64,000 nucleotides of DNA from a virus, in IMG/VR virus record IMGVR_UViG_3300035190_001334, positions 32,001 to 96,000 of that record. The stretch is one strand, 5' to 3'. The translations under genes were made by a program, and so were the position numbers. Of the stretch, positions 3,374 to 64,000 are shown piece after piece; within the stretch, counting starts at the first letter, position 1, and every line of letters starts with the position of its first letter. The notes below the pieces were generated by a model that saw only the letters and a list, made by a program, of their open reading frames with translations, was not told the origin of the DNA and did no database searches.

Positions 3374-3422
3374 CCGCTTACCAATTTATTAATTTTCTAC
3401 TTCTATTGTATACTATTAAAAT

Positions 3423-4280: not shown

Positions 4281-4284
4281 TTTT

Positions 4285-8162: not shown

Positions 8163-8330
8163 ATGATGAAACACTTCACTCATTTCGCTAAGGCTCATTC
8201 GTCGGGCGCTAACTTTGCAAATATTTATCAAACAGGGCTACAAAATTTGATTAGTCCTGTTGTAGAAAAAGAAACTAAAAAATACGTCAGAAAAAAGAAA
8301 GAGCAAGCAGAGGCAGAAAAGGAGGGTTAG
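8163..8330 (+). CDS. 55-aa small protein with ANF motif (not in ORF track)
   Basis: MMKHFTHFAKAHSSGANFANIYQTGLQNLISPVVEKETKKYVRKKKEQAEAEKEG; starts 4 nt after the FN3 gene stop. Confidence 0.6.
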   Translation: MMKHFTHFAKAHSSGANFANIYQTGLQNLISPVVEKETKKYVRKKKEQAEAEKEG

Positions 8331-14309: not shown

Positions 14310-15055
14310 TATGCAATAGGAATTTTTGTAGAAACTGGAGATTGTGTTGCAAATTTATTACGAATATATCTTGCGCCTTTAGTGATGCCAGTTCCATCTG
14401 CTGTGGCACGACCAGCAGCACCTAGAAATGCCCCTGTAACTGCACCTTGAGCGCCACGTCCAATCATCTTGCCAACCCGACCTAAGCCAGATGTATTAGC
14501 CATCTCTTCTTCTGACTCTCCAAGACCGCCTCCTTTAGCCAATCCCGCACCAAGACCGACAAGACTGCCAATTTTAGCTGCTCCGCCAATGCCGAAATTT
14601 GCAAAATGCTGGAAATTACCTGAAAATCCTCCATATTGACCAGTTTGGAATTGTTGTTGACTTTTCCAATTTCCGACACTCATCTTCTTGCGAACCACAC
14701 CTCCTGCATCATAAAATTCATCAGGAGCAAGAGGTTTTTGACCGTTTCTAGGCGCTTGTTGCTTGCTAAGACCTCTACCTACCGATTGCGATGCCAAAGC
14801 TTCTGTACGTGCGTCTGGAGCAGTGCCATATTTAATATTTGCAGAACGTTGGTCGCGAGTTAATGAAAATGGCGAGTTATTTAGCTTCTGATTGCCAATG
14901 GCAGCTACATTTTTCTGGTTGAAAGCATCTATAACACCTTGCTTTGTTTTAGGTTGATTAGCAAATTGTTGACCTTTGTTTTTCAAAGTGTTTAGTACTG
15001 CTTGACCTTGAGTAGCCAAGTTTTTAAAGAAGAAGTCGGAGGTTTGGTATGCCAT
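14309..15055 (-). CDS. Glycine-zipper protein with ANF motif; putative internal virion protein
   Basis: FSGNFQHFANF followed by the module IGSLVGLGAGLAKGGGLGESEEEMANTSGLGRVGKMIG. Confidence 0.65.
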   Translation of the reverse strand: MAYQTSDFFFKNLATQGQAVLNTLKNKGQQFANQPKTKQGVIDAFNQKNVAAIGNQKLNNSPFSLTRDQRSANIKYGTAPDARTEALASQSVGRGLSKQQAPRNGQKPLAPDEFYDAGGVVRKKMSVGNWKSQQQFQTGQYGGFSGNFQHFANFGIGGAAKIGSLVGLGAGLAKGGGLGESEEEMANTSGLGRVGKMIGRGAQGAVTGAFLGAAGRATADGTGITKGARYIRNKFATQSPVSTKIPIA

Positions 15056-40734: not shown

Positions 40735-41982
40735 TTAGGAGATGACAGTTAAACCGTCAGCAGGGTTGAAAGTGGTAAATTCCGCAAGATTTACTGAACT
40801 TTCCAAGTTAGCCAATTTAGCAAATTTACGTGCGCTTCCAGTGCGACCAATAGTAGGAGCCGCAACCAACTGCATACTTGCAGTGTTGGTGATGGAAAGA
40901 GGTGGGTCGCCAGCTTTGGTGTACGTGTTGACGTAGATACCTGCTTTTCCTCCGTTCTCAAGAGTTCCGCCAAGAATACGATTAAACTGACCTTGACGAC
41001 TTAGGAATACTACAGTACCTTCATCAAGTACACGAGTAGGAACTGACTTGCCTTCATTGTCTGTTAGTTCTACATAGTCGTCAACTAAGACGAACTTAGG
41101 TAAAAATCTGCGAGTTAGAACTTCATTAACTTGGTCAATAGAAGGAGTACCAGTAATAACGTTACCGATAACATTAGCTGCAACTACAGCTTCCTTAACC
41201 GACTTACAACGAACCATATTCAAAAGAAGACGTTCGCTAATTGCAATTTCGTCAGCAGGGAACCCGTTAACCCACTTGTAGTTAGAGTGCATATCTACAA
41301 GGTCTTGTAAAGGGTCAGCAGTTTCGTGCTGAGTCCAGTCGCGCTTGAGAGAGTCAACAGTTTCAGTTCCGTTGTAATCCGTTTGATATACGGGCTGAGG
41401 GAACATATTTCTGCGAACAGGCTGAGCTTTTAACCAATTTAACGAAACGTTCAGACCTGTACGACGGTCGGTATACGCCATTTTACCAGTTTGTAGAGTC
41501 TGCCAAGCAAGATAGTCAATCAAATTGATGTGACCACGAACAAGAGAAGCTACAGAACCAAAAATGACCTTAGCCAATTCGTTATCTTGCCCTAACTGCA
41601 CTTTACCTTCAGAAACTTGAATATTCTGAATGGTGATGTTGCGTAACTTAGCGATTTCGCTAACTTCTTGCATACGCCACTGCGTATCTTCATCCCAGTG
41701 ATACGAAATCGCTGCTTTGAAGTTACGAGCTTGAATGCGAGAGAAGTCGCCTTTTTTCGCTTCAGGATAATCCTGACCAGTTGCAACAAGAGACGCAATG
41801 GGGTCTGTGGTTGTCCCAAGATAAGCAAGCCAATCACGACCTGTCTTTTCAATCAAGGGAACATAAGTGTTGAGAACTTTGCTGCGTTCTTTGGTCTGAC
41901 GAAGGGTATTGTTGATAACCAAGTCCGCCGCCTTAGCAGCGCGTGCTTCTTTTAAAAAGCTTTCAATAGGGGACATTGCCAT
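40735..41982 (-). CDS. Major capsid protein (lambda gpE / Phage_cap_E-like)
   Basis: 415 aa; LAWQTLQTGK, W....ADPLQDL, G.PADEIAIS motifs; downstream of scaffold and decoration genes. Confidence 0.85.
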   Translation of the reverse strand: MAMSPIESFLKEARAAKAADLVINNTLRQTKERSKVLNTYVPLIEKTGRDWLAYLGTTTDPIASLVATGQDYPEAKKGDFSRIQARNFKAAISYHWDEDTQWRMQEVSEIAKLRNITIQNIQVSEGKVQLGQDNELAKVIFGSVASLVRGHINLIDYLAWQTLQTGKMAYTDRRTGLNVSLNWLKAQPVRRNMFPQPVYQTDYNGTETVDSLKRDWTQHETADPLQDLVDMHSNYKWVNGFPADEIAISERLLLNMVRCKSVKEAVVAANVIGNVITGTPSIDQVNEVLTRRFLPKFVLVDDYVELTDNEGKSVPTRVLDEGTVVFLSRQGQFNRILGGTLENGGKAGIYVNTYTKAGDPPLSITNTASMQLVAAPTIGRTGSARKFAKLANLESSVNLAEFTTFNPADGLTVIS

Positions 41983-42922: not shown

Positions 42923-43834
42923 TTATAGTCCGAAATCCAGACCCATAGCAATCAAGTCGCCCTTAGCAGCTTCTTCAAGGCTAGATGAGAAATTAGCAGT
43001 TGCAACTTCTTCAGCGCTAACAGAGAAGTCAGTGAACTGAGTCACATTAGCAACATTACGCAATAGAGAGTAAGCAAACTCCGACATATTGAGTTGTTCT
43101 TGCAAATCACGCGCACCGTTAGTTTGAGCGATACCAGTAAACTGAGCAACTCGTTGGCGAGGGTCAGAGAAGTTACCGATAAGAGCTTCCTTCATTGCAG
43201 GGGTGATAACACCGTCAACAACGTCTTGACTAACACGGGCGTTCAAATCGGTCAGTGCTTGAGATAATTGTGCTTCAAAGTTAGCTTGAGAGAATTGGGC
43301 TTCAAGAGCTTCTTTTTCTGCACGAAGTTTTTGGATTTCGCTAACTACTGTCTTATTGAAATTAGCTTGAATTGCTGGGTTGTATGCCGCAGCGTAATTA
43401 GCAGCGTCTTCAGTCATAGGTTCTTCTGCGCCTCCTTCAGCGCCTTCTGTTGCGTATTGTGCTTCTAGAGCTTGGCGGTCTTGTTCTAACACTCCATCAG
43501 CAACTTCGATAAGTTTATCCAAGTCTTCTTCGGTAGCATCAGGGAATGCAGAAATCATTGCTTCCAAATCTTCGACATTATCAACGATGTTTTCGCCACT
43601 AATGTAGCCAGTTACATCTTCTTCGCTTAATCCAGTTGCCTGAACGAGAGCTTGAATACCAGCACTGATTGCAGGGGAAGTATCCTCTGGGTCAGTAATT
43701 AGGTCAGCAAACTGAGCTTCAATAAGGTCAAGCAAGAGTTCGCCAAAAGCATTGGTTGGATTGAGTTCGGTCGCTTGACCTTCTCCTTCTATACCAGCGT
43801 CCTGAGCGCCTAAATCTTGTTGTTCTTCATCCAT
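42923..43834 (-). CDS. Capsid scaffolding protein
   Basis: Acidic, coiled-coil, DGVITPAMKE motif; several ANF/AQF motifs. Confidence 0.65.
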   Translation of the reverse strand: MDEEQQDLGAQDAGIEGEGQATELNPTNAFGELLLDLIEAQFADLITDPEDTSPAISAGIQALVQATGLSEEDVTGYISGENIVDNVEDLEAMISAFPDATEEDLDKLIEVADGVLEQDRQALEAQYATEGAEGGAEEPMTEDAANYAAAYNPAIQANFNKTVVSEIQKLRAEKEALEAQFSQANFEAQLSQALTDLNARVSQDVVDGVITPAMKEALIGNFSDPRQRVAQFTGIAQTNGARDLQEQLNMSEFAYSLLRNVANVTQFTDFSVSAEEVATANFSSSLEEAAKGDLIAMGLDFGL

Positions 43835-43864
43835 TTTTATTATTTTCGTTTTTAGGATTAAAAC

Positions 43865-43900
43865 AATAATGCCACACTAATTTCTCAGCATGGCATTATT
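43865..43900 (-). terminator. Stem-loop (terminator or processing site) upstream of the scaffold gene
   Basis: AATAATGCCATGCTGA-GAAA-TTAGTGTGGCATTATT followed by GTTTT. Confidence 0.6.
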
Positions 43901-43933
43901 TATGGCTTTTTCCCGTAACTGACGTAATGACTG

Positions 43934-45607
43934 CTATTCGATTTCTATAGAGCGTGGAACTGTGTTGGGATTCTTGAATGCGTCTGGATTATCCTTGCGA
44001 CGACTCTGTAAACGTTGGTTAGCTTGATAACGATTGACACCAGCGCCAGCAACTGAACCAACTCCACGACCTACACCAGCACCTAATCCAGTCATACCAA
44101 GTACTTTACCTGCACGACCGACCAAACCTGTGCTTCTTCGTTGCTCTTCTGTTTCATTGATACCAGAACCTTCAAGAGCGCCTAGACCCGCACCAACAGC
44201 AGTACCGACATTAGCGGCATTGATTTGAGGAGATAGATTGCCAAAACGATTTGCAGCACCTCTAGCAACTTTTTGAGCGCCATTAACTAAACCAGTAGGA
44301 ATGATGCCAAACGATGCAGACTTACGGATGCTTTTGCTATAACGAGCTTCGTTTTCTTGTTTCTTTTGTGCCAATTTAGCAGCAAGTAGACCACCACCAG
44401 CAAGTGCAGTACCTCCAACACCGATTGCAGCATATTTAGCTGCCTTATCCGTGTCAAGAACTTTAGCTACAGAGTTAAGCGCATCATGAGTACCTACAGC
44501 CGCTTTAGCAGCCCCATAGTTAACTTTGTCTGCAATACCAAAAGGAAGACTTGCGACAATACGATTACCAGTCACAGAAGCTAAATTACCTCCACCAGCC
44601 TTAGTCGCAGCTTTACGAACCACTTTAGCTGCGGGTTGTGTGATTAATTTGCCAGCAGATACAAGACCTTTATTAATTTGGTCGCCAATGCCAAAATTAG
44701 CTTCTTGTTGACGTTTGAGGAAGTTTGCTGATTTGCGGATTTCTTTATTGAAGTACTTGCCTACTGGCTTGCCCGATTCAATCATCGAGTTGATTTCTTT
44801 TACCCCCATACTTGCAGGTACTTTAGGGTCGCGCAATTTCTTTTTCTGCATCTTGCCGCGCAAAGTTGACTCTAAGCTGACGACTCCAGTATTGTTTTGA
44901 GGGATATATGTGCTTCCGTGTTGGATTAGGCGTTGAATTGTAGCTGGGTCTTGGAAATTTGCTGATTTGCGAATCATTTTACTTAACTCTGTAGTTGAAT
45001 TTACGTTTACTGTGTTTGGTGGGATACCTCCACCTGCTTCTTTTTTCATTCTGACTTTACCAAGCAAACTACCAAAAAATTGCTTAGTAGTTTCTATATC
45101 TTGTTTACCTTTGTTAATAGCTTGGTCAATCAACGGTGTTGGCTCAGGTCGTGTAGATTGACGTAGTAGTTCTTCCGCCATCCTAGCTTCTCTTTGGTCA
45201 AGATTCGGAGCTACAACCTCTTGCACTTTATTTTTTACAGCTTCAACTTCCTTACCAACTCTATTAGCAGCTTTACGAACGCCTCTAGGATTTGCAGCTT
45301 CGTGTTGAGCTACAACAGCCTCTCGTCTTCGTAATTCTAGTTCAGGAGCCACAGCAGCTTTATAACGATTTACACCATATCCAGCCCCAGCACCAAGTCC
45401 AGCACCGACAGTAGAGCTTGTCAGCACCTTACCTAAACGATTACCGACATTAGTAGCTCTCTTTTCTGCATCTGATTCAAATATGCCAGCACCTTGTAAT
45501 AGTCCAAGTCCACCGCCCACACCAGCACCAATTTTCACTGCATTAGGTATGGCAGAAAGAAGTGAGGGAGCGAAGCTGGCTGATTTTCGTAGTAGTTTTT
45601 TAGTCAT
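43934..45607 (-). CDS. Glycine-zipper polyprotein with RKSA(S/N)F junctions
   Basis: RKSASF twice, RKSANF twice, QEANF; two copies of the G-x-G-x-x-E-[ST]...G-x-R-x-GK module. Confidence 0.7.
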   Translation of the reverse strand: MTKKLLRKSASFAPSLLSAIPNAVKIGAGVGGGLGLLQGAGIFESDAEKRATNVGNRLGKVLTSSTVGAGLGAGAGYGVNRYKAAVAPELELRRREAVVAQHEAANPRGVRKAANRVGKEVEAVKNKVQEVVAPNLDQREARMAEELLRQSTRPEPTPLIDQAINKGKQDIETTKQFFGSLLGKVRMKKEAGGGIPPNTVNVNSTTELSKMIRKSANFQDPATIQRLIQHGSTYIPQNNTGVVSLESTLRGKMQKKKLRDPKVPASMGVKEINSMIESGKPVGKYFNKEIRKSANFLKRQQEANFGIGDQINKGLVSAGKLITQPAAKVVRKAATKAGGGNLASVTGNRIVASLPFGIADKVNYGAAKAAVGTHDALNSVAKVLDTDKAAKYAAIGVGGTALAGGGLLAAKLAQKKQENEARYSKSIRKSASFGIIPTGLVNGAQKVARGAANRFGNLSPQINAANVGTAVGAGLGALEGSGINETEEQRRSTGLVGRAGKVLGMTGLGAGVGRGVGSVAGAGVNRYQANQRLQSRRKDNPDAFKNPNTVPRSIEIE

Positions 45608-45609
45608 GG

Positions 45610-46971
45610 TTATCCTTGGTATCTATTGCGTCCAGATTCTCTCAAAATCTTGGTTGCATGGTAAAGTCTAGAATTGTCTTGCTGACCAGTTAAAGATTGA
45701 GGAATAGCTGTAGGTGCTTGGTAGTCATTGTAACTACCGATTGACCTTGGTGAGTAACCTACTTCTTCTCCTGTTAAAGATTGGGGGATGCCTACAGGAG
45801 ATTGATAATCGCCGTTCCATTGAGGAGGAAGTGGCAGTCTTTCGGAAATTTTATCGCGTAAATACTTACCGCTTTTTAAACCATATTCTTTGGCTTGACC
45901 ACCGTAACCTTCAGCTTGTTGGCGTAAGCCTTCAAAGTCAATATCAGGTGTTTCGCCCTTCAAAGCCTTGTAAGCAAGCAAACCACCACCAGCTAAACCA
46001 GCAAGACCTGCTCCAGCACCCAGACGTTGTTTAACGGAAGAGCCTTTAATTGCATCAATAACACCAAACTCAGCTACAGCTTGAATATATGCACGTTTGA
46101 ATTGAATATAAGTAGAATTATGTTTACGTGTGAATTTTGTCATGTTTTTGTTGTTTTTGTTAAAGTGAGAACCTAGTAAATAAGATGTAGCACCTGCCGA
46201 AGCAAGACCACCTCCTACAATACCCAAACCTGTTAAAGCGGCATTTTTAGTATTTTCGCGATTCAGATTATTTAAGTCATTATAGTACCGATTTTCGGTC
46301 TTTTCTTGTTCGCTGTTGGATAATCTTTTATATTTTTTTGAAGGCTCTATTCTGTTTTTGAATCGGTCTACTTTATTGAGGGCATTGTCATATTCTGTGT
46401 CTTTATTGGGTTGTAAAGAGGCTACAAGATTACCTCCAGCTAACCCGCCTAATACTCCAGAACCAATTATATTTTTATATTCGACGTATTTAGTTAGTTC
46501 TTCTGGAGATAAGTCTTGAACGTTATCAGGTAAAGAAAAGAAATTAGCGAAATGTTGTTTGTCGCCACTGAAATCGTTGTTAAGACCGTAACCTAATCCT
46601 ATAGCACCTCCAACTGCGCCAGCACCTAAAGTGCCAACACCGATGCCTTTAGCTTTATTAAGCCATCTGCTAACTTCTGCATCTGATTCTCTATTGCGAG
46701 TCGAGTCACCAATAACTCTATCTCTCTGAACTCTGAGCTTTTGTAGCTCTCTTATTTTTTGTTTCTCTGGTAGGTTGCTTTCTAAGAGTGCGCGAGATTG
46801 TTGGTCGTAGTCTACATTTGCATCAGACTCTCTACCTAAAGAACGAGCTTTACTTCGATAATAAGCATCTTCTCCCCACTTGTTACCGATATATTTACCA
46901 ATAACTCCGCCACCAAGAGCTAATCCTGCCCCTGCGCCAACTCCACCTAATGCGTAATCTTCAAAGTCCAT
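45610..46971 (-). CDS. Glycine-zipper polyprotein with ANF/AEF junctions
   Basis: Three Gly-zipper modules separated by FSGDKQHFANF and FKRAYIQAVAEF. Confidence 0.7.
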   Translation of the reverse strand: MDFEDYALGGVGAGAGLALGGGVIGKYIGNKWGEDAYYRSKARSLGRESDANVDYDQQSRALLESNLPEKQKIRELQKLRVQRDRVIGDSTRNRESDAEVSRWLNKAKGIGVGTLGAGAVGGAIGLGYGLNNDFSGDKQHFANFFSLPDNVQDLSPEELTKYVEYKNIIGSGVLGGLAGGNLVASLQPNKDTEYDNALNKVDRFKNRIEPSKKYKRLSNSEQEKTENRYYNDLNNLNRENTKNAALTGLGIVGGGLASAGATSYLLGSHFNKNNKNMTKFTRKHNSTYIQFKRAYIQAVAEFGVIDAIKGSSVKQRLGAGAGLAGLAGGGLLAYKALKGETPDIDFEGLRQQAEGYGGQAKEYGLKSGKYLRDKISERLPLPPQWNGDYQSPVGIPQSLTGEEVGYSPRSIGSYNDYQAPTAIPQSLTGQQDNSRLYHATKILRESGRNRYQG

Positions 46972-46975
46972 AGTG

Positions 46976-47908
46976 TTATTGATACTTATTAGTTAATTGT
47001 ACATCATCAGCCTGTTTTTGTTTTCTACGCTCGTCATAAGCTTTCTTAAGTGTGTAACCACCATGAACTAGACCGATAGCATTAGCTGCTGCAACTGTTT
47101 CACCTAAACGACTTTTACCTACGTTTGGTAGTGCAGAAGGAATAGGATGTGCAGCTTGTCTTTCTATTTCTAAGCTGCGACCATGAAAGAACCCATCATC
47201 TCTACCCATTTGCTCCTCTAAAGCAGCACGACGTAAAAACGGTTTAGATAAGTCATCGACAAATTTATATTTGCCTTCTGGCTCTACCTTATAAAGCTCA
47301 CCATCTAAAGCTGCCAACCTACCACCGTCCATTGCAGCGTTAAGAGTAGAGTAGAAATTTTTCTGAGGTAATCCGAATTTATATTTGTAGGTAACAGGCT
47401 CATCGTATTCTCTTGTAATTACTAAGGAGGGGTTGACAACACCCTTTTTAGATAAACTTTCATAATTTTGCCTGATGTTCTTGTCACTAATTAAATCTTG
47501 AAAACTAGGGTATCTTGGAATGTTAGATACATCTACATCCTCACCACTGACTCCAGCAGCGTTTGCCGATAGTATTGTTGGGTGAGTGTGAGCCATTTGT
47601 AGATTCTCAAGACCTCCTAAGTTGTTGGGGTAGCCTTTTACCCAAGGAACTATTCTATCAAGTGGAATTGACGTTGAAATAGCTTCTTTACTCGGAAGAT
47701 TAATTGCATCTTTGAAAGTACGATTACCTAGTGTGTTTATGTAGTTCGCAGAAGTATAGCCGACCTCAGAATTTGGATACTTACTGACTAAACCTCGCAA
47801 ACTATTCTCTGCATGGTCTTTTAGGTTAGGGTATTCATCTACAGATTTACCTGTAAGATTTTCTAGATAGTCGTCCCAACTAATACCAAAATTTACAAAG
47901 TGTCTCAT
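46976..47908 (-). CDS. JAB/JAMM-like metalloenzyme candidate with N-terminal HFVNF tag
   Basis: MRHFVNF start; NSEVGY...AHTHP...YPSFQDL matches E...HxH...SxxD. Confidence 0.55.
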   Translation of the reverse strand: MRHFVNFGISWDDYLENLTGKSVDEYPNLKDHAENSLRGLVSKYPNSEVGYTSANYINTLGNRTFKDAINLPSKEAISTSIPLDRIVPWVKGYPNNLGGLENLQMAHTHPTILSANAAGVSGEDVDVSNIPRYPSFQDLISDKNIRQNYESLSKKGVVNPSLVITREYDEPVTYKYKFGLPQKNFYSTLNAAMDGGRLAALDGELYKVEPEGKYKFVDDLSKPFLRRAALEEQMGRDDGFFHGRSLEIERQAAHPIPSALPNVGKSRLGETVAAANAIGLVHGGYTLKKAYDERRKQKQADDVQLTNKYQ

Positions 47909-47910
47909 AG

Positions 47911-49611
47911 TTACAAAGCACCCCAATTTACATTTTTCAATCCTGTTCGCAACACAGACTTAACATCACCATTCAAAGCCGCATCAATAATCCGATTACG
48001 AGAACCGTCATCGATTACATCCCCTTTAGCTTTTGCTATTAATGCGCGACGGAGTTGCTTATCCTTAATTGCGTCAAGAGCAGCAAGTTTTTGTGCCTCG
48101 AACACCTCTTCTTGTTGGTCAGCAGCCTTTTTTCTATTGTAGATACCGTAAAGTGTACCTCCAATAGCTAAGCTTGGGGTAATTAGTGGGTCGAAAAAAT
48201 TTGCAGTATTAGAATTGTCGTTGAATTGTAGCTGAGTACCTACTAAGTAGCCTTCCCTAGCTAAGGAGCCTCCTACTAACCCCCCAGCCATACTAGCACC
48301 TAAATACTTGCCAGTTCTACCTACATTTTGGAAGTACTTATCTCTCAAACTTCCTTGTTGAAGTTTTTTTTCTTCGGGAGACAAGTTATTGAATCTTTGT
48401 AATTCATCTACAAATTCTTGGTTTTGGTTTTTAAATTGCTCCCTAGAAGTGCCAGTCAGTCTTCGTGCGACACTCCCACCAAGTAAAGCACCGCCAATAC
48501 CTGAACCTAAATAACCAGCACCATATAGCAACTGAGCATCTTCAGGAGACATAAACTCAGCAATCTTGCCTTTACTTCTAGAATACCGAGTAGTCTTGCC
48601 TTTTCTTTTCTGCACTTCGGCTTGCTGTGCAGGAGTAAGTCTGTCAAGAGGATTATCCGTAATACCTTGAAGTAAAGGGTTGCCAGTAATATTAGCAGCT
48701 TCGCGAATCAAGTTGTCTGCATGGTATTGAGGACTGTCGAAATAGCTAGCTGCAAAGTCTTGAGCATTTTTATCTTTGAGGCTATTTACCTTGTAGGCAT
48801 CAAGCGCTCTTTGTTTGTTGAGCTTAGATAGCAAACCATACCCAGCAACTAATGTACCTCCGATTGCAGCAAGTGGAAGTGCTTTTTCTTTTTTAATGAA
48901 GAAAGGGTTACGAACACCAATCTTAGGAAATGCGAAGTTGGCTGGTGTAACTAAAGGGGCAGCACTAAAAAAGTTGTATGGCACTCTCACCTGAGTTTGA
49001 GGTTGTTGGGCTTGCGCTTGACGTTGTTCCAATAGTAGATTCCTTTTTGCAATTATTTCTTGTACTTTGTCGCGGTGAGCTTGAGCCTGAGCTTGTTTTT
49101 CTTTCTCTGCTTCTTTAGTTTTATGATTTTGATATAGCAAAGCCCCCGCCGCTAAAGGTGCAACAGTTAAACCTCCAAGAGTACCGACAACTGCTGCCTC
49201 ATTAGCCCCAAATTTATCAATTAATTTGTTAGATACATAATTTACAGCAGGAGCAACTAAAGGGAGATTGCTATTTGCATATTTATCCCGAAGTCTTTGG
49301 GTTTCTGCCTTGGCTACTCTAGCTTTTTTAGCTACTGCTCTATCACCTTGAGCATTTCCGATTTCAGTTGATGTTGGCTCAGGGGCTTTAGGTGGCTCAG
49401 AAGCCCGTCTTTCGCGTTCACGCGCTATTTTGGCGCGTTCCTTCATAACAGCTTCTTCATTCATCTGCTGTTGACGAGATTTTCCTCTGGGGCGATTATC
49501 TTTCTGCTTTCTAAAGAAAGGGTCATTCCCCCAGTTAGTTTCCCTCCCCTCCCTATTGTTAGGGGCGTATTTCTGTTGTCTAGCCGCAAACTCAGCTTTC
49601 AAACTTAACAT
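47911..49611 (-). CDS. Glycine-zipper polyprotein with ANF/AEF junctions
   Basis: KAEF, VTPANF, KIAEF and NTANF separate four modules, each with a Gly-rich hydrophobic helix. Confidence 0.7.
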   Translation of the reverse strand: MLSLKAEFAARQQKYAPNNREGRETNWGNDPFFRKQKDNRPRGKSRQQQMNEEAVMKERAKIARERERRASEPPKAPEPTSTEIGNAQGDRAVAKKARVAKAETQRLRDKYANSNLPLVAPAVNYVSNKLIDKFGANEAAVVGTLGGLTVAPLAAGALLYQNHKTKEAEKEKQAQAQAHRDKVQEIIAKRNLLLEQRQAQAQQPQTQVRVPYNFFSAAPLVTPANFAFPKIGVRNPFFIKKEKALPLAAIGGTLVAGYGLLSKLNKQRALDAYKVNSLKDKNAQDFAASYFDSPQYHADNLIREAANITGNPLLQGITDNPLDRLTPAQQAEVQKRKGKTTRYSRSKGKIAEFMSPEDAQLLYGAGYLGSGIGGALLGGSVARRLTGTSREQFKNQNQEFVDELQRFNNLSPEEKKLQQGSLRDKYFQNVGRTGKYLGASMAGGLVGGSLAREGYLVGTQLQFNDNSNTANFFDPLITPSLAIGGTLYGIYNRKKAADQQEEVFEAQKLAALDAIKDKQLRRALIAKAKGDVIDDGSRNRIIDAALNGDVKSVLRTGLKNVNWGAL

Positions 49612-50630
49612 CTAGCTGTACCTCGTACATACTTCTTGGTTGTGCCAATTGACAAGTTGAACTGAGCCAACTTATTACTACCACGCTTATAAGTAGTTTG
49701 TTGCTGTAATTGTGGAATTGTCATGCCACTCTCAGCACCACCTTGCAATTGAGCCTGAGTTTGTGCAGCTTGGTCTTGCTGAGTCATTACGCCAGCTTGT
49801 GCTTGCTGATTCATTTGTTGCATTAACTGAGTCAAACCGAGCAGTTCGATAATCTTGACACTGAACCCATTTAACTGAGAGTAAATCAATTGCAACAACA
49901 CTTCTGGGCTATCAATGTTAATCGCATCGTTGTCATAAGCATTTTTGAGCAAGAGCCACAATTTCTGGCAAATTTCGTTGTATTCGTCTTGAAGGTCGTC
50001 AATTGCTTGGTCATTAGCATCAAGCTCATCCCAAGTTACTGCGTTGCCACTATCTGGTATTCCAGAGAAGTTAGCGGTCATTGCTTTGCCCACTTTTTTA
50101 TGAAATAGTCCCATGTTAGGAATTGCAGGAATAGGTACAAGGCTGAGTTCCATGATGCGATGTTCGTTAGGGTCAAGGTTAAGTCCCATGCTAACGCTCT
50201 TGACACCACTACGCAATGCTTCAATACCTTTAGCTGCTGCAACCTTTACGCCACTTAAGAACATCCCAAGCTTGCCTACTAAATGCTTGGAATTTTGGTT
50301 TGGTAAATCTGCTTCCGTAATTACTTTTGTGAACGCTCGTCCTGAAATACTTCCAATAGTATTTGGAATATCTTTTTTGTGGTCAGCACAAACAGGTACA
50401 ACTGTGCCGCTATCGATAGCTCGGTTGGTATGCTCAACGATTGTATTGAGACGTTCGGGACTAAATTCGTGTTCAACATCAGTACTATCGGTAAACTTGC
50501 CTTCAGTGGCTACAAGAGCCGTGTACTCGTCTTTAATAGGAGTGCCAGAAACCAACACCTGCCCCAACTCAAAGTTGGCTCTTGATGCTGGGGCTTTAAA
50601 ATAAGCGATATTAGGTGAGGTTTTTTTCAT
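49605..50630 (-). CDS. Prohead protease (Mu gpI-like)
   Basis: EGKFTD, VPVCADH, KSVSMG, ELSLVPIPAIPNM motifs; upstream of scaffold and MCP. Confidence 0.75.
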   Translation of the reverse strand: MKKTSPNIAYFKAPASRANFELGQVLVSGTPIKDEYTALVATEGKFTDSTDVEHEFSPERLNTIVEHTNRAIDSGTVVPVCADHKKDIPNTIGSISGRAFTKVITEADLPNQNSKHLVGKLGMFLSGVKVAAAKGIEALRSGVKSVSMGLNLDPNEHRIMELSLVPIPAIPNMGLFHKKVGKAMTANFSGIPDSGNAVTWDELDANDQAIDDLQDEYNEICQKLWLLLKNAYDNDAINIDSPEVLLQLIYSQLNGFSVKIIELLGLTQLMQQMNQQAQAGVMTQQDQAAQTQAQLQGGAESGMTIPQLQQQTTYKRGSNKLAQFNLSIGTTKKYVRGTARC

Positions 50631-50674
50631 TGTTAGCTAATGCGCTATCATAACTATATAGATACAATCTTAAC

Positions 50675-50914
50675 ATGAACGACAAGTCACTCTTTAACCA
50701 GCAAGTCGGGGATAAGCTACGCCGCCTTCGTAAAGCCAAGAACAAATCTCAGGCTAGTGTCGCCGCAGATTTCTCTTTTGGGCAAGATGTTGTTAGTGAG
50801 ATTGAACGTGGGGTAAAAACAATCAGTGCATTTGAGTTGGCAGCTTTTAGCGCGTATTACGAGAAGCCTATCGTGTATTTTTACATGAACTCGCCTCTAC
50901 CCTCTAAGAAATAA
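50675..50914 (+). CDS. XRE-family helix-turn-helix regulator
   Basis: VGDKLRRLRKAKNKSQASVA...VSEIERG. Confidence 0.85.
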   Translation: MNDKSLFNQQVGDKLRRLRKAKNKSQASVAADFSFGQDVVSEIERGVKTISAFELAAFSAYYEKPIVYFYMNSPLPSKK

Positions 50915-52496
50915 TACTGACACTTCGAGCTACCTTATTTACAATATTCTTTTCTGCCCCAACAAAATTGAGTGCTTCAAGTCCTGATTCTACTATGCGG
51001 GGTAAGTTGGCTGCATCTGGTACGGGCAATCGAGGTGTTGTAAACGTCGAGTAAATAGCTTTGGCTGTGGCATTGCCTAGTGATTTGTTAGATGCTAGTA
51101 GTGCAAGTCCAGCGACGAATGCAGTAGCAGCGATAGCAATCTTAATTGGTGTACCTAAGCCGCCTTGTGGTGGACGATTTGGAGGTTGTTTTTTAGGGTC
51201 AAAATCTTCTTCGTCAATGTCTTCCGAGAGCGAGTAATAACACATACAACTACAATGGAAAGGTATAGAAGGTTTGCTGTGATTCCGCCACACGGTAGGG
51301 TTTCCGCGTTTGTAGTTAATAACATCCCCTCCGCTTCTTTGATTCTCTATTATCTCGAACAAGTAGTATTCAAGACCATCTTGAAGTTCACAATCTTCAC
51401 ATGGTACTGGGTCAGTTCTCTTACTTCCACTTGCTAATCTCTTGTACCTACTAATCAGTGCGTATTCCCTATCAACATTCCATCTAAAGCGTTTGTATCT
51501 ATCAGCTTTACCTCCAAATGCCGCTACCTTCCCGAAGTTGTATGCAATTGCCAACTCGGTCTTCACAATTACATCTGGCGACTGTTGCTTAAACGCGCCT
51601 TGCAAGCCTTGCTGGTCTTTGTTGATAATGTTCCTAATCCTTACTTTGAGAAGGTTAAGGTCGTATTCGTACTTGTTACGTTGAGATTTGATGTTAGTGA
51701 TGTACTCTCGATTATCAGCTAAGAATAATGCAACAGCCTTACGAATTTGCTTGTTACTTTCGGCTGAGTATGATGTTTGCAATACTCGACGACGCTTACC
51801 TAAGTAGTTACTTGATATGAAGTTCTGTTTCTCGTCGTTATTACCATATAAGAAGTTCATCATGGCAGCTTTACCTGCATTAGTGCTGTCACTAATCTTG
51901 TTGAGCATATAGACATTACGAGAGACTTCATCAGCTATCTTGACACGCTCTTGTATCTTGGCAACATCGTTAATATTCGTTTGTTCAGCACGTTGATTAA
52001 GAAGGTTGTTAACTGCATTGCGGGTCAAACTATACCTAATCTTATTTTTGTTCTCTGCCTCGTAACTCTTTGGTGCTGCGGCAAACTCTACCGACAGTTC
52101 CTTGGTGTCTTCTGTTATTACTTGCGTGTCGAAGTATTTACGAATATCATCATCGCCATACTCGTACAAATAGTCGTACATCTGATGTCTCAGCGCCAAT
52201 TTAATCATTGACTCGAAGTTAGTAGTCAGAACTTTACCGAACTCGACCTGCACCTTAGCAAAATACTTGTTAGTGATATCACTCACATTCTTTTCTGCAA
52301 ACTTGTCGAAGATGGTGCTTGGTACTTCATAGATGCTGGTATTCGATTTGGCAATCCACTTAGCTAGTTCATCGACAAAGGTGTTCTTAGCAAAGTCACT
52401 GTTGATTGCTCTGCGAACTTGCAGAACTGACTCAGCCAACGCTTTGAAATATTCTTGCGTCTTGAACTCTTTGAAGCTATTGGACTGTTTTCGCAT
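50904..52496 (-). CDS. Head morphogenesis protein (Mu gpF / SPP1 gp7-like)
   Basis: IVKTELAIAYNFG, CEDC..QDG, IPFHCSCMC; hydrophobic segment near the C-terminus. Confidence 0.75.
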   Translation of the reverse strand: MRKQSNSFKEFKTQEYFKALAESVLQVRRAINSDFAKNTFVDELAKWIAKSNTSIYEVPSTIFDKFAEKNVSDITNKYFAKVQVEFGKVLTTNFESMIKLALRHQMYDYLYEYGDDDIRKYFDTQVITEDTKELSVEFAAAPKSYEAENKNKIRYSLTRNAVNNLLNQRAEQTNINDVAKIQERVKIADEVSRNVYMLNKISDSTNAGKAAMMNFLYGNNDEKQNFISSNYLGKRRRVLQTSYSAESNKQIRKAVALFLADNREYITNIKSQRNKYEYDLNLLKVRIRNIINKDQQGLQGAFKQQSPDVIVKTELAIAYNFGKVAAFGGKADRYKRFRWNVDREYALISRYKRLASGSKRTDPVPCEDCELQDGLEYYLFEIIENQRSGGDVINYKRGNPTVWRNHSKPSIPFHCSCMCYYSLSEDIDEEDFDPKKQPPNRPPQGGLGTPIKIAIAATAFVAGLALLASNKSLGNATAKAIYSTFTTPRLPVPDAANLPRIVESGLEALNFVGAEKNIVNKVARSVSIIS

Positions 52497-52534: not shown

Positions 52535-53092
52535 ATGACACAACTTACACCCGAACCTTACGTCGATACCGTAAGGAAGCAGAAAGAGAAAGACCTTATC
52601 AATGTGACTAAAAAGACGCGCAAGCACATACCAGCTTACGTTTTCCAAGCTCATGCCAATTTACTTGAGCGATTTCCAGACTCAGGACATTTTCTAACTC
52701 CAGCATTTGTCTACCAAACACTTCGCGAAATTACCAAGGCAGCTAAGGCTCAACTATGTGCTGATGAAACTTCGACCATTGACATTTTTGGTTTGGGCAA
52801 ATTAGTACTACTCCGCAAGAAAGCATACAGGAGCGAAGACAAGACCAAGCAGCAACTATATTTGAAGTTCAGGCACTCCAATGTCTTCTTGTATGAAATT
52901 CGCAGACATCACGGTACAGCTACACCAGCCGAACTCAAGATGCTGGAAAAGTCTGACAACTATATGAAGGAATTGCAAGCCAAACGGGAGAAATTTTTAC
53001 GCGAACGAGAAATGAAGAGGAAGGGTGAACTGGATGAACTTGACCCAAGCAATTATTTGAGTCAATTTTCAGGTGTTCTTGACCTTAATTAG
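52535..53092 (+). CDS. HU/IHF-like DNA-binding protein
   Basis: IDIFGLGKLVLLRKKA...LKFRHS resembles the HU beta-arm signature. Confidence 0.5.
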   Translation: MTQLTPEPYVDTVRKQKEKDLINVTKKTRKHIPAYVFQAHANLLERFPDSGHFLTPAFVYQTLREITKAAKAQLCADETSTIDIFGLGKLVLLRKKAYRSEDKTKQQLYLKFRHSNVFLYEIRRHHGTATPAELKMLEKSDNYMKELQAKREKFLREREMKRKGELDELDPSNYLSQFSGVLDLN

Positions 53093-56000
53093 ATTGCATA
53101 AGCACTACTAGGTGGTGCAAAGCTTGCACCGTTGTAAAGCGAGATTCTTCGATACACCACAAAAGAATCCAAGTTGATGTTCAAGCCGCTTGTAGTTATT
53201 GCAGTGGCTTGTCCTATTTGTGCAGGTGTATTCCAGTCACGGTACTCGTAGTCATCAGCAGCTTCGTATACTCGAACTCCACCAACATACAACCTTAGTA
53301 TTCCATTTTGTCTTGTCAGAGCAATGTGGTTGAATACAGTCGAGGATAGGGACAAAGCTACAGAAAAGAGAGCAAGCCCAAGTATTAGAGAGCGCCCTAA
53401 GTATAATCGGTCGGCAGAAAAGAACAGTGAGAGTCCTTGTTGTGTGTAGATGTTAACCACCTCACCATTGGTAGCTTGGTCAGTAAGCAGCCAACCCGCA
53501 ATTGTAAAATCGCCCGACAGAAAAGAGAAGTCTGAGTCATTTGGTATTTGCACATAAGCTGGTACACTGTTTTTGGAAATAGGAAAGCTAGCGGCTCCGA
53601 ACTTTTTGGTAACGGTGTCAAGTACCGAGATGTTGCTGGTCAAGGTCTTGGAGCGATAACTTTGGTCAATAATACTGCTATCGAAGTTCAGTAACGTAAC
53701 TATTTTAGCTGGCTGGTAGTAGTCGCGAATGCTTCGCTCGATGGCAGAAAAAGAAGTTGGACTAATCTTGTAGTCCACAATACAAAACATGGCTACACTG
53801 CCTTTTACACTCCTGTCCTCGAACACCCTGTCCTTAGCAATGGAATTGATGGTAACTAGGTCAGTTGAGTTGAAAATGACTACGCTTAACGATTCTTCAG
53901 GTAGCACATAATCACGCTCTCTTTCTGCCCCGTTCGCCCAAACGTCCCCGTAGAAGTCATTTGCCAGTAATTCTCCATTGTTCCCAGAATTGAAAATGTT
54001 GTTGCTATCCTGACCAAATAAGAAAGCTGCACCAGTTTGCCCTGCTTTGCGAATGTAAGCCATGACGAAGCAGTAACCACTACTTGTGCTGGGAGTGCCG
54101 AAGTCGAGGTGCGAAGAGCCATCTATCTCAAATCGAGCCGCAGGTAGTCCATCGAGTTGAGTTGGTGTTGTGTAATTCACTGCGTTCGTCGATATTAATT
54201 CCTGACCATTTGTGCGATACTCATCAAGTTGAAGTATGTTGCCGCTTGATAGTGTAACGGTTTCAGGTGTGACGATGAAAAATGAACTGAAGGTATTAAG
54301 CAGTCCTTTCAAGTTGATGTAAAGCTGATTAGTAAGTAAAGTGATGCTGACGTTAAAACTGAAAGTGACAGACTCGGTAGCTGTGTAGGTTCGGATGGTG
54401 AAACTGATAAAATCGTCGGTCGGGCAAGTGAATGTAAGGTCGTTGCCAGTTATTGTTGCCGAGTAGTGGTTGACCAGTATTTCATAGCTGACTGCATTAC
54501 CAGCAATTTCAGTGACCTTTTTGTCGAGGTTAACAATAACGTCAGAGCTATACCTGAACTCAGTTGAAGTGTTAAACAACAGTAAAGTAGAATCAAAAAA
54601 CTTGTTGGCTAGTAAGTGTGTAGCTTCTGCAAGTTCAGCTTCGCTCAATGCAACAGACCAGCCAATGAAATACAGTAGTTCCCCTTTCAGTTGAGAAGAG
54701 AATCCACTAAAGCCTATTGAAGAAGTTGCATTAGTAGCCGCGATGATTGCGCCGTAGTCTATGGGTTGGCGATAATTAAAAGTATTGACCCCAACTTTGT
54801 TGACTTTTGTGTTCAACTGCGTTATAGCTGTAGTTCCAAACACATCATCACTGGTTCCTGTAGTCCAAAGAACACCATTGGCAAATATATCTGGAAAGCC
54901 GTTAGCCATGAAGCGTTCACCAGTTTGTTTCTGCTTATATACCCAAATGAAGGTTTTGCAATTGACTGAAGTGCCTGAGAGTGAACGAGGATTGAGAGAA
55001 CTATTGGTGATGAAGGAAGAGGTCGTACCGTTGTAAGTTATTTGGTTGACCGAATCGGCTGTGCTGGTGACGTACAGAGGCTTATCAGGTAATCGGCGTG
55101 AGTCTTCCCATTTAGTTATGTTGCCAAAATTATCGGTGTAAATTCCGTAAGGTATGTCATCTACATCTTTTAACGTGGAAAGTGATACCGCTATGTTTGA
55201 TTGTTGTGGTAAGTCAAGAATAAAGGGGTCTGCTATTACAGTTTCTAGTGAAAAACTAAAATAAGACACCATACTATTGCTGTTAGTGATGCTGATGCTA
55301 AAACTACCATCAAAAACTTCAGGTATATAACCTGATAAAACTGAACCTGTGAAGCTTAGTCCTAAGCCACTTGGAGATATATAGCTGTACGAAGTGATAT
55401 CAAAAAATTCGTCAATTGCAATAGTCGCAAAGTCAAAGCTAAAATAAGCCCCAACAAATGCTCTAAATGAAGGTTGAGATGAAATAACTACACCATTGTA
55501 AGCAATATATATTTGAGCTAACTTAGCTTCTACTGATGCCAATATATCTAACGGGCAAGGTGATGATGATGTGATGATTGCAGCTATTTTTCCACGAACA
55601 CTGAAGTTGCTAGTCCCATTTTTACCCCCAAAACCTGTAATAGTTTCATACTCGTTGCTATTGGATATGTTGGTGACACTTAAAATTCTTGAGGTGTTAA
55701 GGGGAACGAACGTTGTTGGTGCTACTGCTCGACTATTTATTCTTGATGTGGCATTGTAAATAGAGTTGCCAGCTAAAGGCTGCTCTGACCAAAGCGAAGC
55801 GCCACCAGAAGGAAAAGCATCATAAAGAAAAGGTGGGTCGCCTAGTGTTTGACGAGGGGCATATATTAGAAAACTACCTGACTCCCTTGTAAGGTAAACG
55901 AGAATAATTGTACCTACATTGATAGGTCTGTTGAAAAATAGTTGTTGATTACCAGTATCTGAGAAGTTTATGCTTGGCTGATTATTAAACTGGCTATCAT

Positions 56001-56241
56001 TAGGTATTAATGTAGGTCTATTGCTTGTAGCTTGTAGATAGTTACCATCGAAAAGCAAGTTGTAAATGGTTTGGACTTGATTGTTGTCTCCAGTAGTACC
56101 TATCTTCGAGAACTCTAGATATTCTGGGTCACATAAATACAGACCATTCAAATCTGGTATTAACTTTGCAACGTCATAAACCTGACTAGTATATGAGTAA
56201 CCACCAGAAAAAGAATGATTAAATGCTGCCGATAATTTCAT
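53089..56241 (-). CDS. Multi-LamG-domain tail fibre/adhesin
   Basis: Three internal lectin-like repeats plus a C-terminal LamG (DFTIAGW, HIALTRQNG.LRLYVGG). Confidence 0.7.
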   Translation of the reverse strand: MKLSAAFNHSFSGGYSYTSQVYDVAKLIPDLNGLYLCDPEYLEFSKIGTTGDNNQVQTIYNLLFDGNYLQATSNRPTLIPNDSQFNNQPSINFSDTGNQQLFFNRPINVGTIILVYLTRESGSFLIYAPRQTLGDPPFLYDAFPSGGASLWSEQPLAGNSIYNATSRINSRAVAPTTFVPLNTSRILSVTNISNSNEYETITGFGGKNGTSNFSVRGKIAAIITSSSPCPLDILASVEAKLAQIYIAYNGVVISSQPSFRAFVGAYFSFDFATIAIDEFFDITSYSYISPSGLGLSFTGSVLSGYIPEVFDGSFSISITNSNSMVSYFSFSLETVIADPFILDLPQQSNIAVSLSTLKDVDDIPYGIYTDNFGNITKWEDSRRLPDKPLYVTSTADSVNQITYNGTTSSFITNSSLNPRSLSGTSVNCKTFIWVYKQKQTGERFMANGFPDIFANGVLWTTGTSDDVFGTTAITQLNTKVNKVGVNTFNYRQPIDYGAIIAATNATSSIGFSGFSSQLKGELLYFIGWSVALSEAELAEATHLLANKFFDSTLLLFNTSTEFRYSSDVIVNLDKKVTEIAGNAVSYEILVNHYSATITGNDLTFTCPTDDFISFTIRTYTATESVTFSFNVSITLLTNQLYINLKGLLNTFSSFFIVTPETVTLSSGNILQLDEYRTNGQELISTNAVNYTTPTQLDGLPAARFEIDGSSHLDFGTPSTSSGYCFVMAYIRKAGQTGAAFLFGQDSNNIFNSGNNGELLANDFYGDVWANGAERERDYVLPEESLSVVIFNSTDLVTINSIAKDRVFEDRSVKGSVAMFCIVDYKISPTSFSAIERSIRDYYQPAKIVTLLNFDSSIIDQSYRSKTLTSNISVLDTVTKKFGAASFPISKNSVPAYVQIPNDSDFSFLSGDFTIAGWLLTDQATNGEVVNIYTQQGLSLFFSADRLYLGRSLILGLALFSVALSLSSTVFNHIALTRQNGILRLYVGGVRVYEAADDYEYRDWNTPAQIGQATAITTSGLNINLDSFVVYRRISLYNGASFAPPSSAYAI

Positions 56242-62895: not shown

Positions 62896-63613
62896 CATAG
62901 AACAAAAGCTGCAATCACTACGCAACTTAAATAGTGAACAGCCCGAAATGCAAAAGATAACAGTACATAAACTCAGCAAAACAAGTTGGGTAAATTGGAC
63001 TGATATTAAACGCGCATATATTCTTGGCAAGCGTATCGAGGAGTTCGACGAGGAGACTGGACACACGCGGATTTGGTCTGAGAGCTACAATCTGCAAGAA
63101 CTTGCTGAGGAGTTTGGTGTTGGAGTTAGTCAGCTAACCAAGAAGTCGGCTACCGAAGGTTGGGGCGGATTGCGCGATAGTTACTTGGCGCGAGTACAGG
63201 AAGAGGCGCTAGGCACTGAGCTTGGTTATTTCACCAACGAGGAGAGCGAGACTGAGGCAAACAGCTTGGCTATCATTCGTAAGGGCATGAAACTGATTAA
63301 CTTAGGGCTTGAGCAAGAGTATGGCGACTTACTTGAGGCTGTGGACGCTGATGGTGATGTGGACTTGCGCGAGTATAGTAAGGTCAACTTGAAGGCGCTG
63401 ACTGAAGGAATCAAGGGGCTGAAGATGCTGCATGAGATGCATGGTAAGGTGATGGAGCAAGCACCTAAGACTAACCAAGAGCTACTGGAGCAACTGAATC
63501 GTAGCAAGACGGTTGAGAGGCTGAAGAATCCTAAAGAGCGCGAGAAATTGCAAAAGGAGCTACAAAAGAAATTGCAACTCCTTAGTCAGATAGAGGAAGA
63601 TGATGAAGATTAG
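62885..63613 (+). CDS. Terminase small subunit candidate (HTH plus helical)
   Basis: W..IKRAYI.G ... LQELAEEFGVGVSQLTKKSATEGW...R pattern typical of TerS N-terminal HTH; near terL. Confidence 0.55.
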   Translation: MTNNIEQKLQSLRNLNSEQPEMQKITVHKLSKTSWVNWTDIKRAYILGKRIEEFDEETGHTRIWSESYNLQELAEEFGVGVSQLTKKSATEGWGGLRDSYLARVQEEALGTELGYFTNEESETEANSLAIIRKGMKLINLGLEQEYGDLLEAVDADGDVDLREYSKVNLKALTEGIKGLKMLHEMHGKVMEQAPKTNQELLEQLNRSKTVERLKNPKEREKLQKELQKKLQLLSQIEEDDED

Positions 63614-63990
63614 TCGTCGATGTTGTTACGGCGATAGTACTTAGCATTTGCATAGGCATCTTTTAACCCTTCTTTGGCTACGCCTCCTGTAAAACCAAGT
63701 CCACCACCGACAATTCCGCCAACACCCGCATTGCCGACTAATTTACCTAATCTCCCCAAGCCTGTAGTTCTAGCTTTTTCTTCTTCTGACTCTCCAACAC
63801 CCGAACCTTTAACTAGTCCAGCAGCAGCCCCAATACCAGCACCAATTTGTACTCCTCTGTTCTGTGCAAAGGCTTGACCTACTCCCTTGGCTGCACTGCC
63901 AGCATCTTGAACGTTGTGCCAATAAGGACGGGCTTTATCTACTATTGCAGGTAAGGGATTTGTGAAACCAAAATTAGCGAAATGTTGCAT
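63610..63990 (-). CDS. Glycine-zipper protein with N-terminal QHFANF; putative internal virion protein
   Basis: MQHFANF; IGAGIGAAAGLVKGSGVGESEEEKARTTGLGRLGKLVG. May extend beyond the window edge. Confidence 0.65.
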   Translation of the reverse strand: MQHFANFGFTNPLPAIVDKARPYWHNVQDAGSAAKGVGQAFAQNRGVQIGAGIGAAAGLVKGSGVGESEEEKARTTGLGRLGKLVGNAGVGGIVGGGLGFTGGVAKEGLKDAYANAKYYRRNNIDD

Positions 63991-64000
63991 CTGTGTGTGT

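Follow-up and report, generated by a model that had tools for sequence, protein, structure and literature searches.

Enzymes of the JAB superfamily are well known, and JAB domains have already been predicted in proteins that enter cells as phage or plasmid cargo; in that role no substrate has been demonstrated for any of them. Two clades are of particular relevance here. RadC-type JAB domains occur in polyvalent proteins, which stand beside MuF fusions and packaged phage effectors as precedents, and this clade has been predicted not to act on ubiquitin-like (Ubl) tails (PMC5512222). Tox-JAB-2, which overlaps in part with the Pfam family DUF4329 and carries the signature E, H[ST]H, S, D, has been reported in polymorphic toxins, in nucleocytoplasmic large DNA viruses (iridoviruses, mimiviruses and viruses of algae) as well as in the Xanthomonas phage OP1; like RadC it was predicted to be a nuclease and not a peptidase, the tunnel for the Ubl tail being unconserved (Zhang et al., PMC3482391). 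We have analysed a stretch of 64,000 nucleotides (hereafter the window) from the virus record IMGVR_UViG_3300035190_001334, positions 32,001 to 96,000 of a record of 145,466 bp. An open reading frame (ORF) on its minus strand (46976..47908, with the ATG at 47908 and the stop codon at 46976-46978) encodes a protein of 310 amino acids that, judging from its structural model, is very probably a metalloenzyme of the JAB fold. New here is a strongly divergent variant of the domain that Pfam and PHROGs miss and that has an unusually long loop inside the catalytic motif.

The initial annotation had picked out four short strings in this ORF, MRHFVNF (residues 1-7), NSEVGY (46-51), AHTHP (106-110) and PSFQDL (134-139), and had read the last three as an E...HxH...SxxD site. 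All four are present, and the distance of 25 residues that it gave between the last two is essentially right, as S135 comes 26 residues past H109. E48 (47765..47767, minus strand like all the features of this ORF) is a candidate general base and stands in a P-x-x-E-x-G context just ahead of a strand at residues 50-57. The candidate zinc ligands of H107-T-H109-P (47579..47590) close the strand 100-108, and P134-S135-F-Q-D138 (47495..47509) lies at the N terminus of helix 136-153, with S135 as candidate oxyanion serine and D138 as candidate third zinc ligand. An exhaustive HMMER search of 1.84 billion representative sequences retrieved nine proteins of the family and a profile search of a 5.8-billion-protein set a few additional members; the alignment built from them (A2) has 12 members and a mean column identity of 43%. 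E48, H107, H109, S135 and D138 are invariant in it, down to 28% identity, and the three distant members that are 29-33% identical to the window protein keep every catalytic position. There are 19 invariant columns in the family, the further ones including P45, T108, P110, P131, P134, Y174, Y176, N184, D194, R227, E232 and R250. Since the catalytic positions are found among the invariant columns of a family with such a mean identity, the motif goes beyond chance. The ratio of non-synonymous to synonymous divergence (dN/dS) against a 96%-identical copy in the relative L006 is 0.23, which indicates purifying selection and therefore a real gene.

The conservation of these residues also bears on a reading in which the protein is an MPN-like structural component with no catalytic activity, a scaffold of the MPN-minus kind. 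Many MPN proteins are indeed non-enzymatic, and Rpn8, CSN6, Npl4 and Prp8 appeared among the structural matches described below. The five catalytic positions nevertheless remain invariant to 28% identity while their surroundings vary, and we regard a purely structural role as hardly credible.

The AlphaFold2 model obtained from the single sequence was useless (predicted local distance difference test, pLDDT, 36), whereas that obtained with alignment A2 reached a pLDDT of 82 and a predicted template modelling score of 0.76, with values of 91-95 in the blocks that bear the motif (92 for that of the H-T-H). The modelled elements are a helix at residues 29-43, E48, strands 50-57 and 63-70, the strand 100-108 ending in H-T-H, a loop, the helix 136-153 opening with S135 and D138, and strands 161-167 and 170-178. 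Their order, in which the glutamate precedes the first strand, the HxH closes the central strand and the SxxD begins the following helix, is colinear with that of the Escherichia coli RadC copies. The domain that contains the site spans residues 26-254 (47147..47833) and matches JAB/MPN structures, with approximately 100 residues of inserted elements.

We have compared the model exhaustively with 48,161 representative chains using VIA-align, independently of Foldseek. Ranks 1 to 16 were all JAB/MPN proteins, the top one being RadC (2QLC; Z 6.5, root-mean-square deviation 3.8 Å, 115 of 126 residues, model residues 24-250), followed by Rpn11, Sst2, PfJAMM1, CSN5, BRCC36, a Caldiarchaeum Rpn11 homologue, DSY2949 and Cap3; the cytidine deaminases, a sister fold, ranked below them. 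A second look at the best 1000 chains of Foldseek gave 36 chains with Z of at least 5, all MPN, and the top 43 were all MPN as well, with the first non-MPN chain at rank 44, where the deaminases begin. The Foldseek list against the PDB was itself rich in MPN proteins (Npl4, BRCC36, Rpn11/Rpn8, RadC, AMSH/Sst2, CSN5). Language-model comparisons pointed in the same direction: the ESM feature neighbours of residues 26-254 were the Prok-JAB, DUF4329 and Toxin-JAB1 clusters (scores 0.82-0.86, to be taken as leads only), and the nearest structure neighbours of the Atlas's own model were the RadC and DUF4329 clusters. The JAB/MPN fold and active site proposed by the initial annotation are thus borne out by the model, the structural searches, the language-model neighbours and the invariance of the motif, and the comparison with MPN/JAB structures that it had called for returned a fold that is MPN-like. 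Separately, a cytidine deaminase was considered and discarded, since the protein has neither an H/C-A-E nor a PCxxC motif and no deaminase match exceeds Z 4.3.

Several results weigh against the assignment. No JAB domain was recognised by Pfam, PHROGs or searches of the PDB with phmmer and hmmsearch, whether the single protein or the family profile was used. Raising the Pfam threshold to an expectation value (E) of 10 gave no match for any of seven family members, PF01398, PF14464, PF04002, PF14220 and PF15659 included, and the PF14464 profile found nothing in the phage genome. Foldseek returned no PDB match below E 0.026, and Z values of 5-6.5 are moderate, with the tool warning that values below 8 can reflect a common arrangement of elements. 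The spacing of the motif is not canonical either, since 25 residues separate H109 from S135 where the JAMM motif has HxH-x7-S-x2-D; the insertion (residues 111-133; 47510..47578) is modelled confidently, with pLDDT of 91-95, and the distant homologues P0005, P0006 and P0009 have approximately 40 residues more between HxH and PSxxD. Lastly, profile-profile alignment with hhalign in local mode against a RadC profile of low diversity (the copies of E. coli, near relatives of YicR and 80 loci of enterobacteria, the YicR protein search having given only sequences 73-98% identical) picked up the HxH strand and nothing else (P 0.011, probability 4%), while 11-12 DUF4329 domains (11 from 401 sampled Pseudomonadota genomes, plus ORF24 of OP1) gave 103-106 colinear columns that align E, HTH and PSxQD at a P of 0.059-0.074; neither result is significant. 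The structural match carries weight in spite of its moderate Z because of the homogeneity of the matches, the near-full coverage of small JAB domains and the agreement with the motif.

Given the hhalign values, membership in the RadC or the DUF4329 clade is not shown, although the protein leans towards the RadC/Tox-JAB side more than towards the Ubl deconjugases. With the RadC-like JAB domains (PF04002; 2QLC, the best structural match) it shares the E, HxH-P and PSxxD in the same order and on the same secondary-structure elements, and those domains also occur in mobile elements and are predicted to enter the cell with DNA. It differs in having no profile match, in being about 100 residues longer and in standing alone behind a tag instead of forming part of a polyvalent fusion; the RadC signatures HNHPSG and E-V-H-P-R-E are absent. 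With Tox-JAB-2/DUF4329 (PF14220) and Tox-JAB-1 (PF15659) it has in common the H-T-H, a longer HxH-PSxxD loop and the PS-x-Q-D box, so that the E, H[ST]H, S, D signature is found here as H-T-H and PS-F-Q-D. The second histidine is 26 positions from the serine in the window protein, 13 in DUF4329 and 8 in RadC. These clades were among the ESM feature and structure neighbours (ESM structure template modelling score against DUF4329 of 0.67 by target and 0.48 by query), and the matches in BFVD included proteins from iridoviruses, from a relative of the mimiviruses, from algal viruses and from African swine fever virus, besides uncharacterised proteins of siphoviruses, phage proteins resembling RadC and several 'minor capsid proteins' of 520-630 amino acids. 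The context of Tox-JAB proteins is different: no signal peptide precedes the window protein, conserved cysteines and RHS or secretion domains are absent from it, no immunity gene accompanies it, it begins with a HFANF-type tag, and its neighbours in the head operon are head cargo proteins. A tblastn search of phage records with a DUF4329 protein gave nothing, and ORF24 of OP1 was matched only through the Pfam profile, at E 2.8e-5 and below the cut-off. The sampled DUF4329 proteins of Pseudomonadota (L096-L106) are stand-alone proteins of 180-220 amino acids with signal peptides and conserved cysteines, for which a periplasmic or secreted location is likelier than a role as toxin tips.

This resemblance is the ground for a reading in which the packaged enzyme acts on nucleic acid or nucleotides in the manner predicted for RadC and Tox-JAB-2, on DNA or RNA ends of host or phage or on a nucleotide signal at entry. 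The best match is RadC 2QLC, with 91% of that domain covered, the H-T-H fits the H[ST]H of Tox-JAB-2/DUF4329 with a lengthened spacing and a near-identical PS-x-Q-D, the iridovirus, mimivirus-like and algal-virus matches in BFVD coincide with the host range listed for Tox-JAB-2, and both clades are predicted nucleases. That activity is itself only predicted for RadC and Tox-JAB, however; no fused DNA-binding domain is present, and neither the Pfam searches (PF04002, PF14220, PF15659) nor hhalign supports membership. We consider such an activity unlikely, though it deserves to be kept in view more than any of the other alternatives weighed here.

The initial annotation had favoured a different target, proposing an injected isopeptidase that reverses the Ubl conjugates of host defence, as in Bil systems or by Cap2/Cap3 of the cyclic-oligonucleotide-based antiphage signalling system (CBASS); a variant of the same idea is the late stripping of conjugates from virion proteins. 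The JAB fold and the intact catalytic motif agree with it, the structural matches include Cap3 (9ILD, Z 4.3-4.4) and a bacterial Ubl-deubiquitinase (8TYY, Z 3.3), the fast evolution of the catalytic domain (see below) suggests an arms race, and late co-expression with structural genes would suit the clearing of conjugates off virion proteins. Yet the Ubl-specific enzymes ranked under RadC and generic JAMMs, and the neighbours RadC, DUF4329 and Toxin-JAB1 are clades reported to have no conserved tunnel for the Ubl tail (PMC3482391, PMC5512222). The JABs of Cap3 (CBASS type II) and of the Bil/Bub systems belong to the same superfamily, have the same catalytic motif and are weak structural matches (BubCD 9EA4 at Z 5.7), but the window gene is not encoded with an E1, E2 or Ubl, these enzymes come behind RadC and the generic JAMMs among the matches, and no ThiF/E1 was detected in the 145-kb phage genome or among the neighbours. 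Our literature searches turned up no demonstration of a phage JAB acting as Ubl counter-defence. Deconjugation of this kind therefore appears improbable, and the fuller proposal, that a HFANF-loaded, fast-evolving JAB injected from a siphovirus capsid disarms host immunity by cleaving a Ubl or other protein conjugate, seems to us equally doubtful. Were it true, it would be the first case of a deconjugase delivered in the virion as a counter-defence, and would add a portable capsid-loading tag. We prefer a general mechanism and leave the class of substrate wide.

The genomic context is that of a phage head. The major capsid protein gene (40735..41982, minus strand; phrog_29, E 1.3e-19) encodes a product 95% identical to the capsid proteins of Pam2 (ON014754) and PA-SR01 (MT234670), two Pseudanabaena phages that are siphoviruses of approximately 140 kb, and on sequence grounds the virus of the window is evidently a relative of both. 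Read along the minus strand, the genes encode in turn proteins of 1050 and 530 aa, the prohead protease, p566, the JAB-like ORF, p453, p557, p303, p302 and the major capsid protein. The JAB-like ORF is thus placed between the genes of the protease, at the start of the cluster, and of the capsid protein, at its end, a position kept in the relatives L003-L008. The protease (49605..50630, minus strand) is Mu gpI-like (phrog_976, E 5.7e-5), and its homologue in PA-SR01 is annotated as a Mu-like prophage I protein. The JAB-like ORF starts 2 nt past the stop codon of p566 (47911..49611, minus strand), a cargo protein with a glycine zipper and A-N-F motifs, and ends 4 nt ahead of the start of p453 (45610..46971, minus strand), a glycine-zipper protein with an internal QHFANF junction; these gaps indicate that the ORF belongs to one tightly packed operon.

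In tblastn searches the JAB-like gene was absent from both Pam2 and PA-SR01. The 88-nt gap between gp15 and gp16 of Pam2 contains a 26-codon ORF (L001 9471-9560) that opens with codons (M-R-Y-F-A) like those at the start of the JAB-like gene and closes with codons like those at its end. It is a deletion scar, left by a clean internal deletion of approximately 850 nt. Since Pam2 was isolated and forms plaques, the gene is dispensable. The A-N-F sites are kept in the cargo proteins of Pam2, and a role of the enzyme as processor of those sites was accordingly discarded.

The same observations bear on a late morphogenetic peptidase, not packaged, that would trim head or cargo proteins, in line with the proposal made for the lambda gpK JAB domain in tail assembly. 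JAB domains do occur in phage assembly proteins such as lambda gpK, and within the head operon the gene is closely linked to structural genes. However, Pam2 and PA-SR01 have no such gene and still have the same protease, capsid protein and A-N-F motifs, and the catalytic domain diverges much faster than its would-be structural substrates. The likeness to tail assembly proteins of the gpK type (JAB plus NlpC/P60) consists of a JAB-superfamily domain among phage structural genes; the window gene differs in its location in the head module, in having no NlpC/P60 domain, in being dispensable and in that no neighbouring equivalent of the Ubl-like gpI was identified. A part in assembly is thus rather improbable, if slightly less so than Ubl deconjugation.

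The divergence along the cluster is very uneven. Between the relative L008 and the window, identity is 100% for the capsid protein, 99% for p302 and 97% for the protease, and falls to 58% for the JAB-like protein and 36% for p453. The cargo genes from protease to capsid (43934-49611) are hypervariable against L008, L007, L003 and PA-SR01 (L111), with identities of 36-84%, insertions and deletions, and additional ORFs (in L007, for example, a gene for 245 amino acids), while the protease, p302 and the capsid protein stay 93-100% identical across the compared relatives. The relatives that carry the gene (L006-L008) are so far represented by metagenomic contigs only. The fast-diverging catalytic core reads as effector-like evolution. 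In L006, synonymous divergence (dS) is 0.08 for the JAB-like gene and 0.30 for p302, a contrast that suggests mosaic recombination; the copy in this relative (2885-3817) has a glutamine-to-stop change at codon 304, by which the last seven residues of the tail are lost.

The ends of the protein behave differently from its middle. Among the eight close homologues identity is 84% in the N-terminal heptapeptide (MRHFVNF, family consensus MRHFANF; 47888..47908), 46% in the linker that follows it (residues 8-25; 47834..47887), 46-67% in the catalytic domain, 81% in a Gly/Ala-rich amphipathic helix (residues 268-290; 47039..47107) and 92% in the charged C-terminal tail (residues 291-310; 46979..47038), which is the best conserved segment. 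The linker, of low confidence in the model (pLDDT below 50), is deleted in five of these eight and in most homologues overall. Constraint on the ends seems to come from the conserved capsid machinery, that on the middle from something variable. The initial annotation had described a short hydrophobic helix near the C terminus; the helix is there, at about residues 268-290, and is only weakly hydrophobic, its best Kyte-Doolittle mean over 19 residues (KD19) being 0.73 against 1.4-2.1 for the glycine zippers of the neighbours. A membrane anchor was discarded on this value.

The N-terminal tag noted in the initial annotation proved real and conserved, and other phage proteins share it. In the phage proteome 21 copies of the tripeptide ANF were counted where 8.2 are expected, and 11 of these fall in five head ORFs (42923-50630). 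The longer pattern [QR]HF[AV]NF has five copies in the 145-kb genome. Two follow the start methionine directly, in the JAB-like ORF and in a 128-aa glycine-zipper protein (genome 3070-3456, L108); the other three are internal junctions that precede glycine-zipper modules, in p453, in a 248-aa ORF (14309-15055) and in a kinase-like 313-aa ORF (63610-64000, running on to 64551) with a weak ABC1 kinase-like match (E 0.0069). Distant homologues retain an aromatic-x(6-8)-[AS]-N-F arrangement near their N terminus. Within the phage no paralogue of the JAB-like protein was found, and its C-terminal module has no detectable similarity to the glycine zippers of the neighbours.

A short conserved N-terminal peptide with a candidate prohead-protease motif is what characterises the capsid-targeting sequence of phage T4, an analogy that we draw in part from the description in PMC5512222. 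With the T4 internal proteins (IPI-III, Alt) the JAB-like protein would share such a peptide resembling a prohead-protease site, and also the condition of an accessory, host-directed enzyme encoded with the head genes. There is no sequence relation between them, the motif of the window is based on A-N-F where that of T4 ends in Glu, and the protease of the window is Mu gpI-like.

Mass spectrometry of Pam2 identified gp15, gp17, gp19 and gp20 as virion proteins, with the protease gp14, gp16 and the scaffold-like gp18 not marked as such (PMC9382816, Table S2). By tblastn these four correspond to p566, p557, p302 and the capsid protein, respectively, so that homologues of the proteins encoded around the JAB-like ORF are virion components of a close relative. 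The position of the gene and the presence of these flanking homologues in virions make it moderately probable that the JAB-like protein is itself packaged. Counting on the other side, gp16 of Pam2, a partial homologue of the downstream p453, was undetected in virions, the only virion proteome that we found for the group is that of Pam2, whose genome has no JAB-like gene, and late expression also fits an assembly-stage role outside the capsid.

Packaging among candidate ejection proteins would also suit a hydrolase of the envelope, ejected so as to cut a peptide link in the wall or envelope and aid a DNA conduit formed by the glycine-zipper proteins. The gene is embedded among such proteins, and the sampled DUF4329 relatives of Pseudomonadota have signal peptides and hence work outside the cytoplasm. 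The protein is unlike known wall hydrolases, though, the C-terminal helix is too weakly hydrophobic for membrane insertion, and JAB enzymes are not known to cut peptidoglycan. We regard this as very unlikely, more so than a part in assembly or in deconjugation.

The best reading of the locus is that the JAB-like gene is an optional, accessory cargo gene of the phage head and encodes a highly divergent zinc hydrolase with its catalytic site intact. It would be transcribed late, together with the head genes, and the protein would enter the procapsid by way of conserved sequences at both ends, namely the N-terminal heptapeptide and the C-terminal helix and tail. MRHF(A/V)NF would repeat the A-N-F motif present at intervals in the internal proteins encoded nearby, and the prohead protease would probably recognise or cut it, as with the capsid-targeting sequence of T4. 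The protein would then leave the capsid with the DNA and hydrolyse a host target. The bond attacked may be that of a peptide or an isopeptide, or the substrate may be nucleic acid or a nucleotide, in keeping with the predictions for the RadC and Tox-JAB-2 clades. The complete chain, an optional packaged JAB hydrolase delivered at infection that hydrolyses a host target, is put forward tentatively, its chances falling a little short of even.

The family appears confined to the group of Pam2-type cyanophages and a few remote phages. A search of IMG/VR gave three related loci, no relative was found in one genome per species of 185,579 prokaryotic species, and tblastn against 50,697 phage records gave no match to the JAB-like protein. 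Longer or fused forms of the protein were not found either, a negative that is weak evidence by the search method's own caveat. The contig of one distant homologue (L002) encodes a large terminase with an intein (4187-6277) and, at 3485-4171, a 228-aa glycine-zipper protein that carries a ...SNTANF... site, as in p566; this site indicates that the system of A-N-F motifs and glycine zippers extends past the Pam2 group.

Other differences among the relatives were seen around the cluster. In Pam2 and L003 a gene of 121-126 amino acids and a glycoside hydrolase similar to family GH19 are found between a helix-turn-helix gene and the protease (L001 5968-7088, L003 1769-2907), and the corresponding interval of the window (50631-50903) has neither. 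In PA-SR01 a DEAD/DEAH-box helicase gene on the opposite strand (L111 4258-6054) is inserted within the head cargo cluster. The 530-aa protein (50904-52496) has a strongly hydrophobic C-terminal helix (KD19 2.04) and gave no match in a Pfam search; its Cys-rich C-terminal strings may resemble those of MuF/SPP1 gp7 proteins. The counterpart of the 1050-aa protein (53089-56241) is annotated in Pam2 as an adaptor, and the portal of that phage is annotated as a distant 510-aa gene, by HHpred to the Thermus phage P74-26. A 510-aa ORF at 8327-9859 of the window may be the counterpart of this portal gene, and the 1050-aa protein itself is probably not a portal.

The scar in Pam2 amounts to a natural knockout in an otherwise near-identical head module, and this natural deletion, together with a culturable pair of cyanophage and host, makes the function of the gene directly testable. 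The combination of conserved ends with a divergent enzymatic core suggests a modular loading of effectors into capsids, which is of relevance for the arms races between phages and their hosts and for the engineering of packaged cargo.

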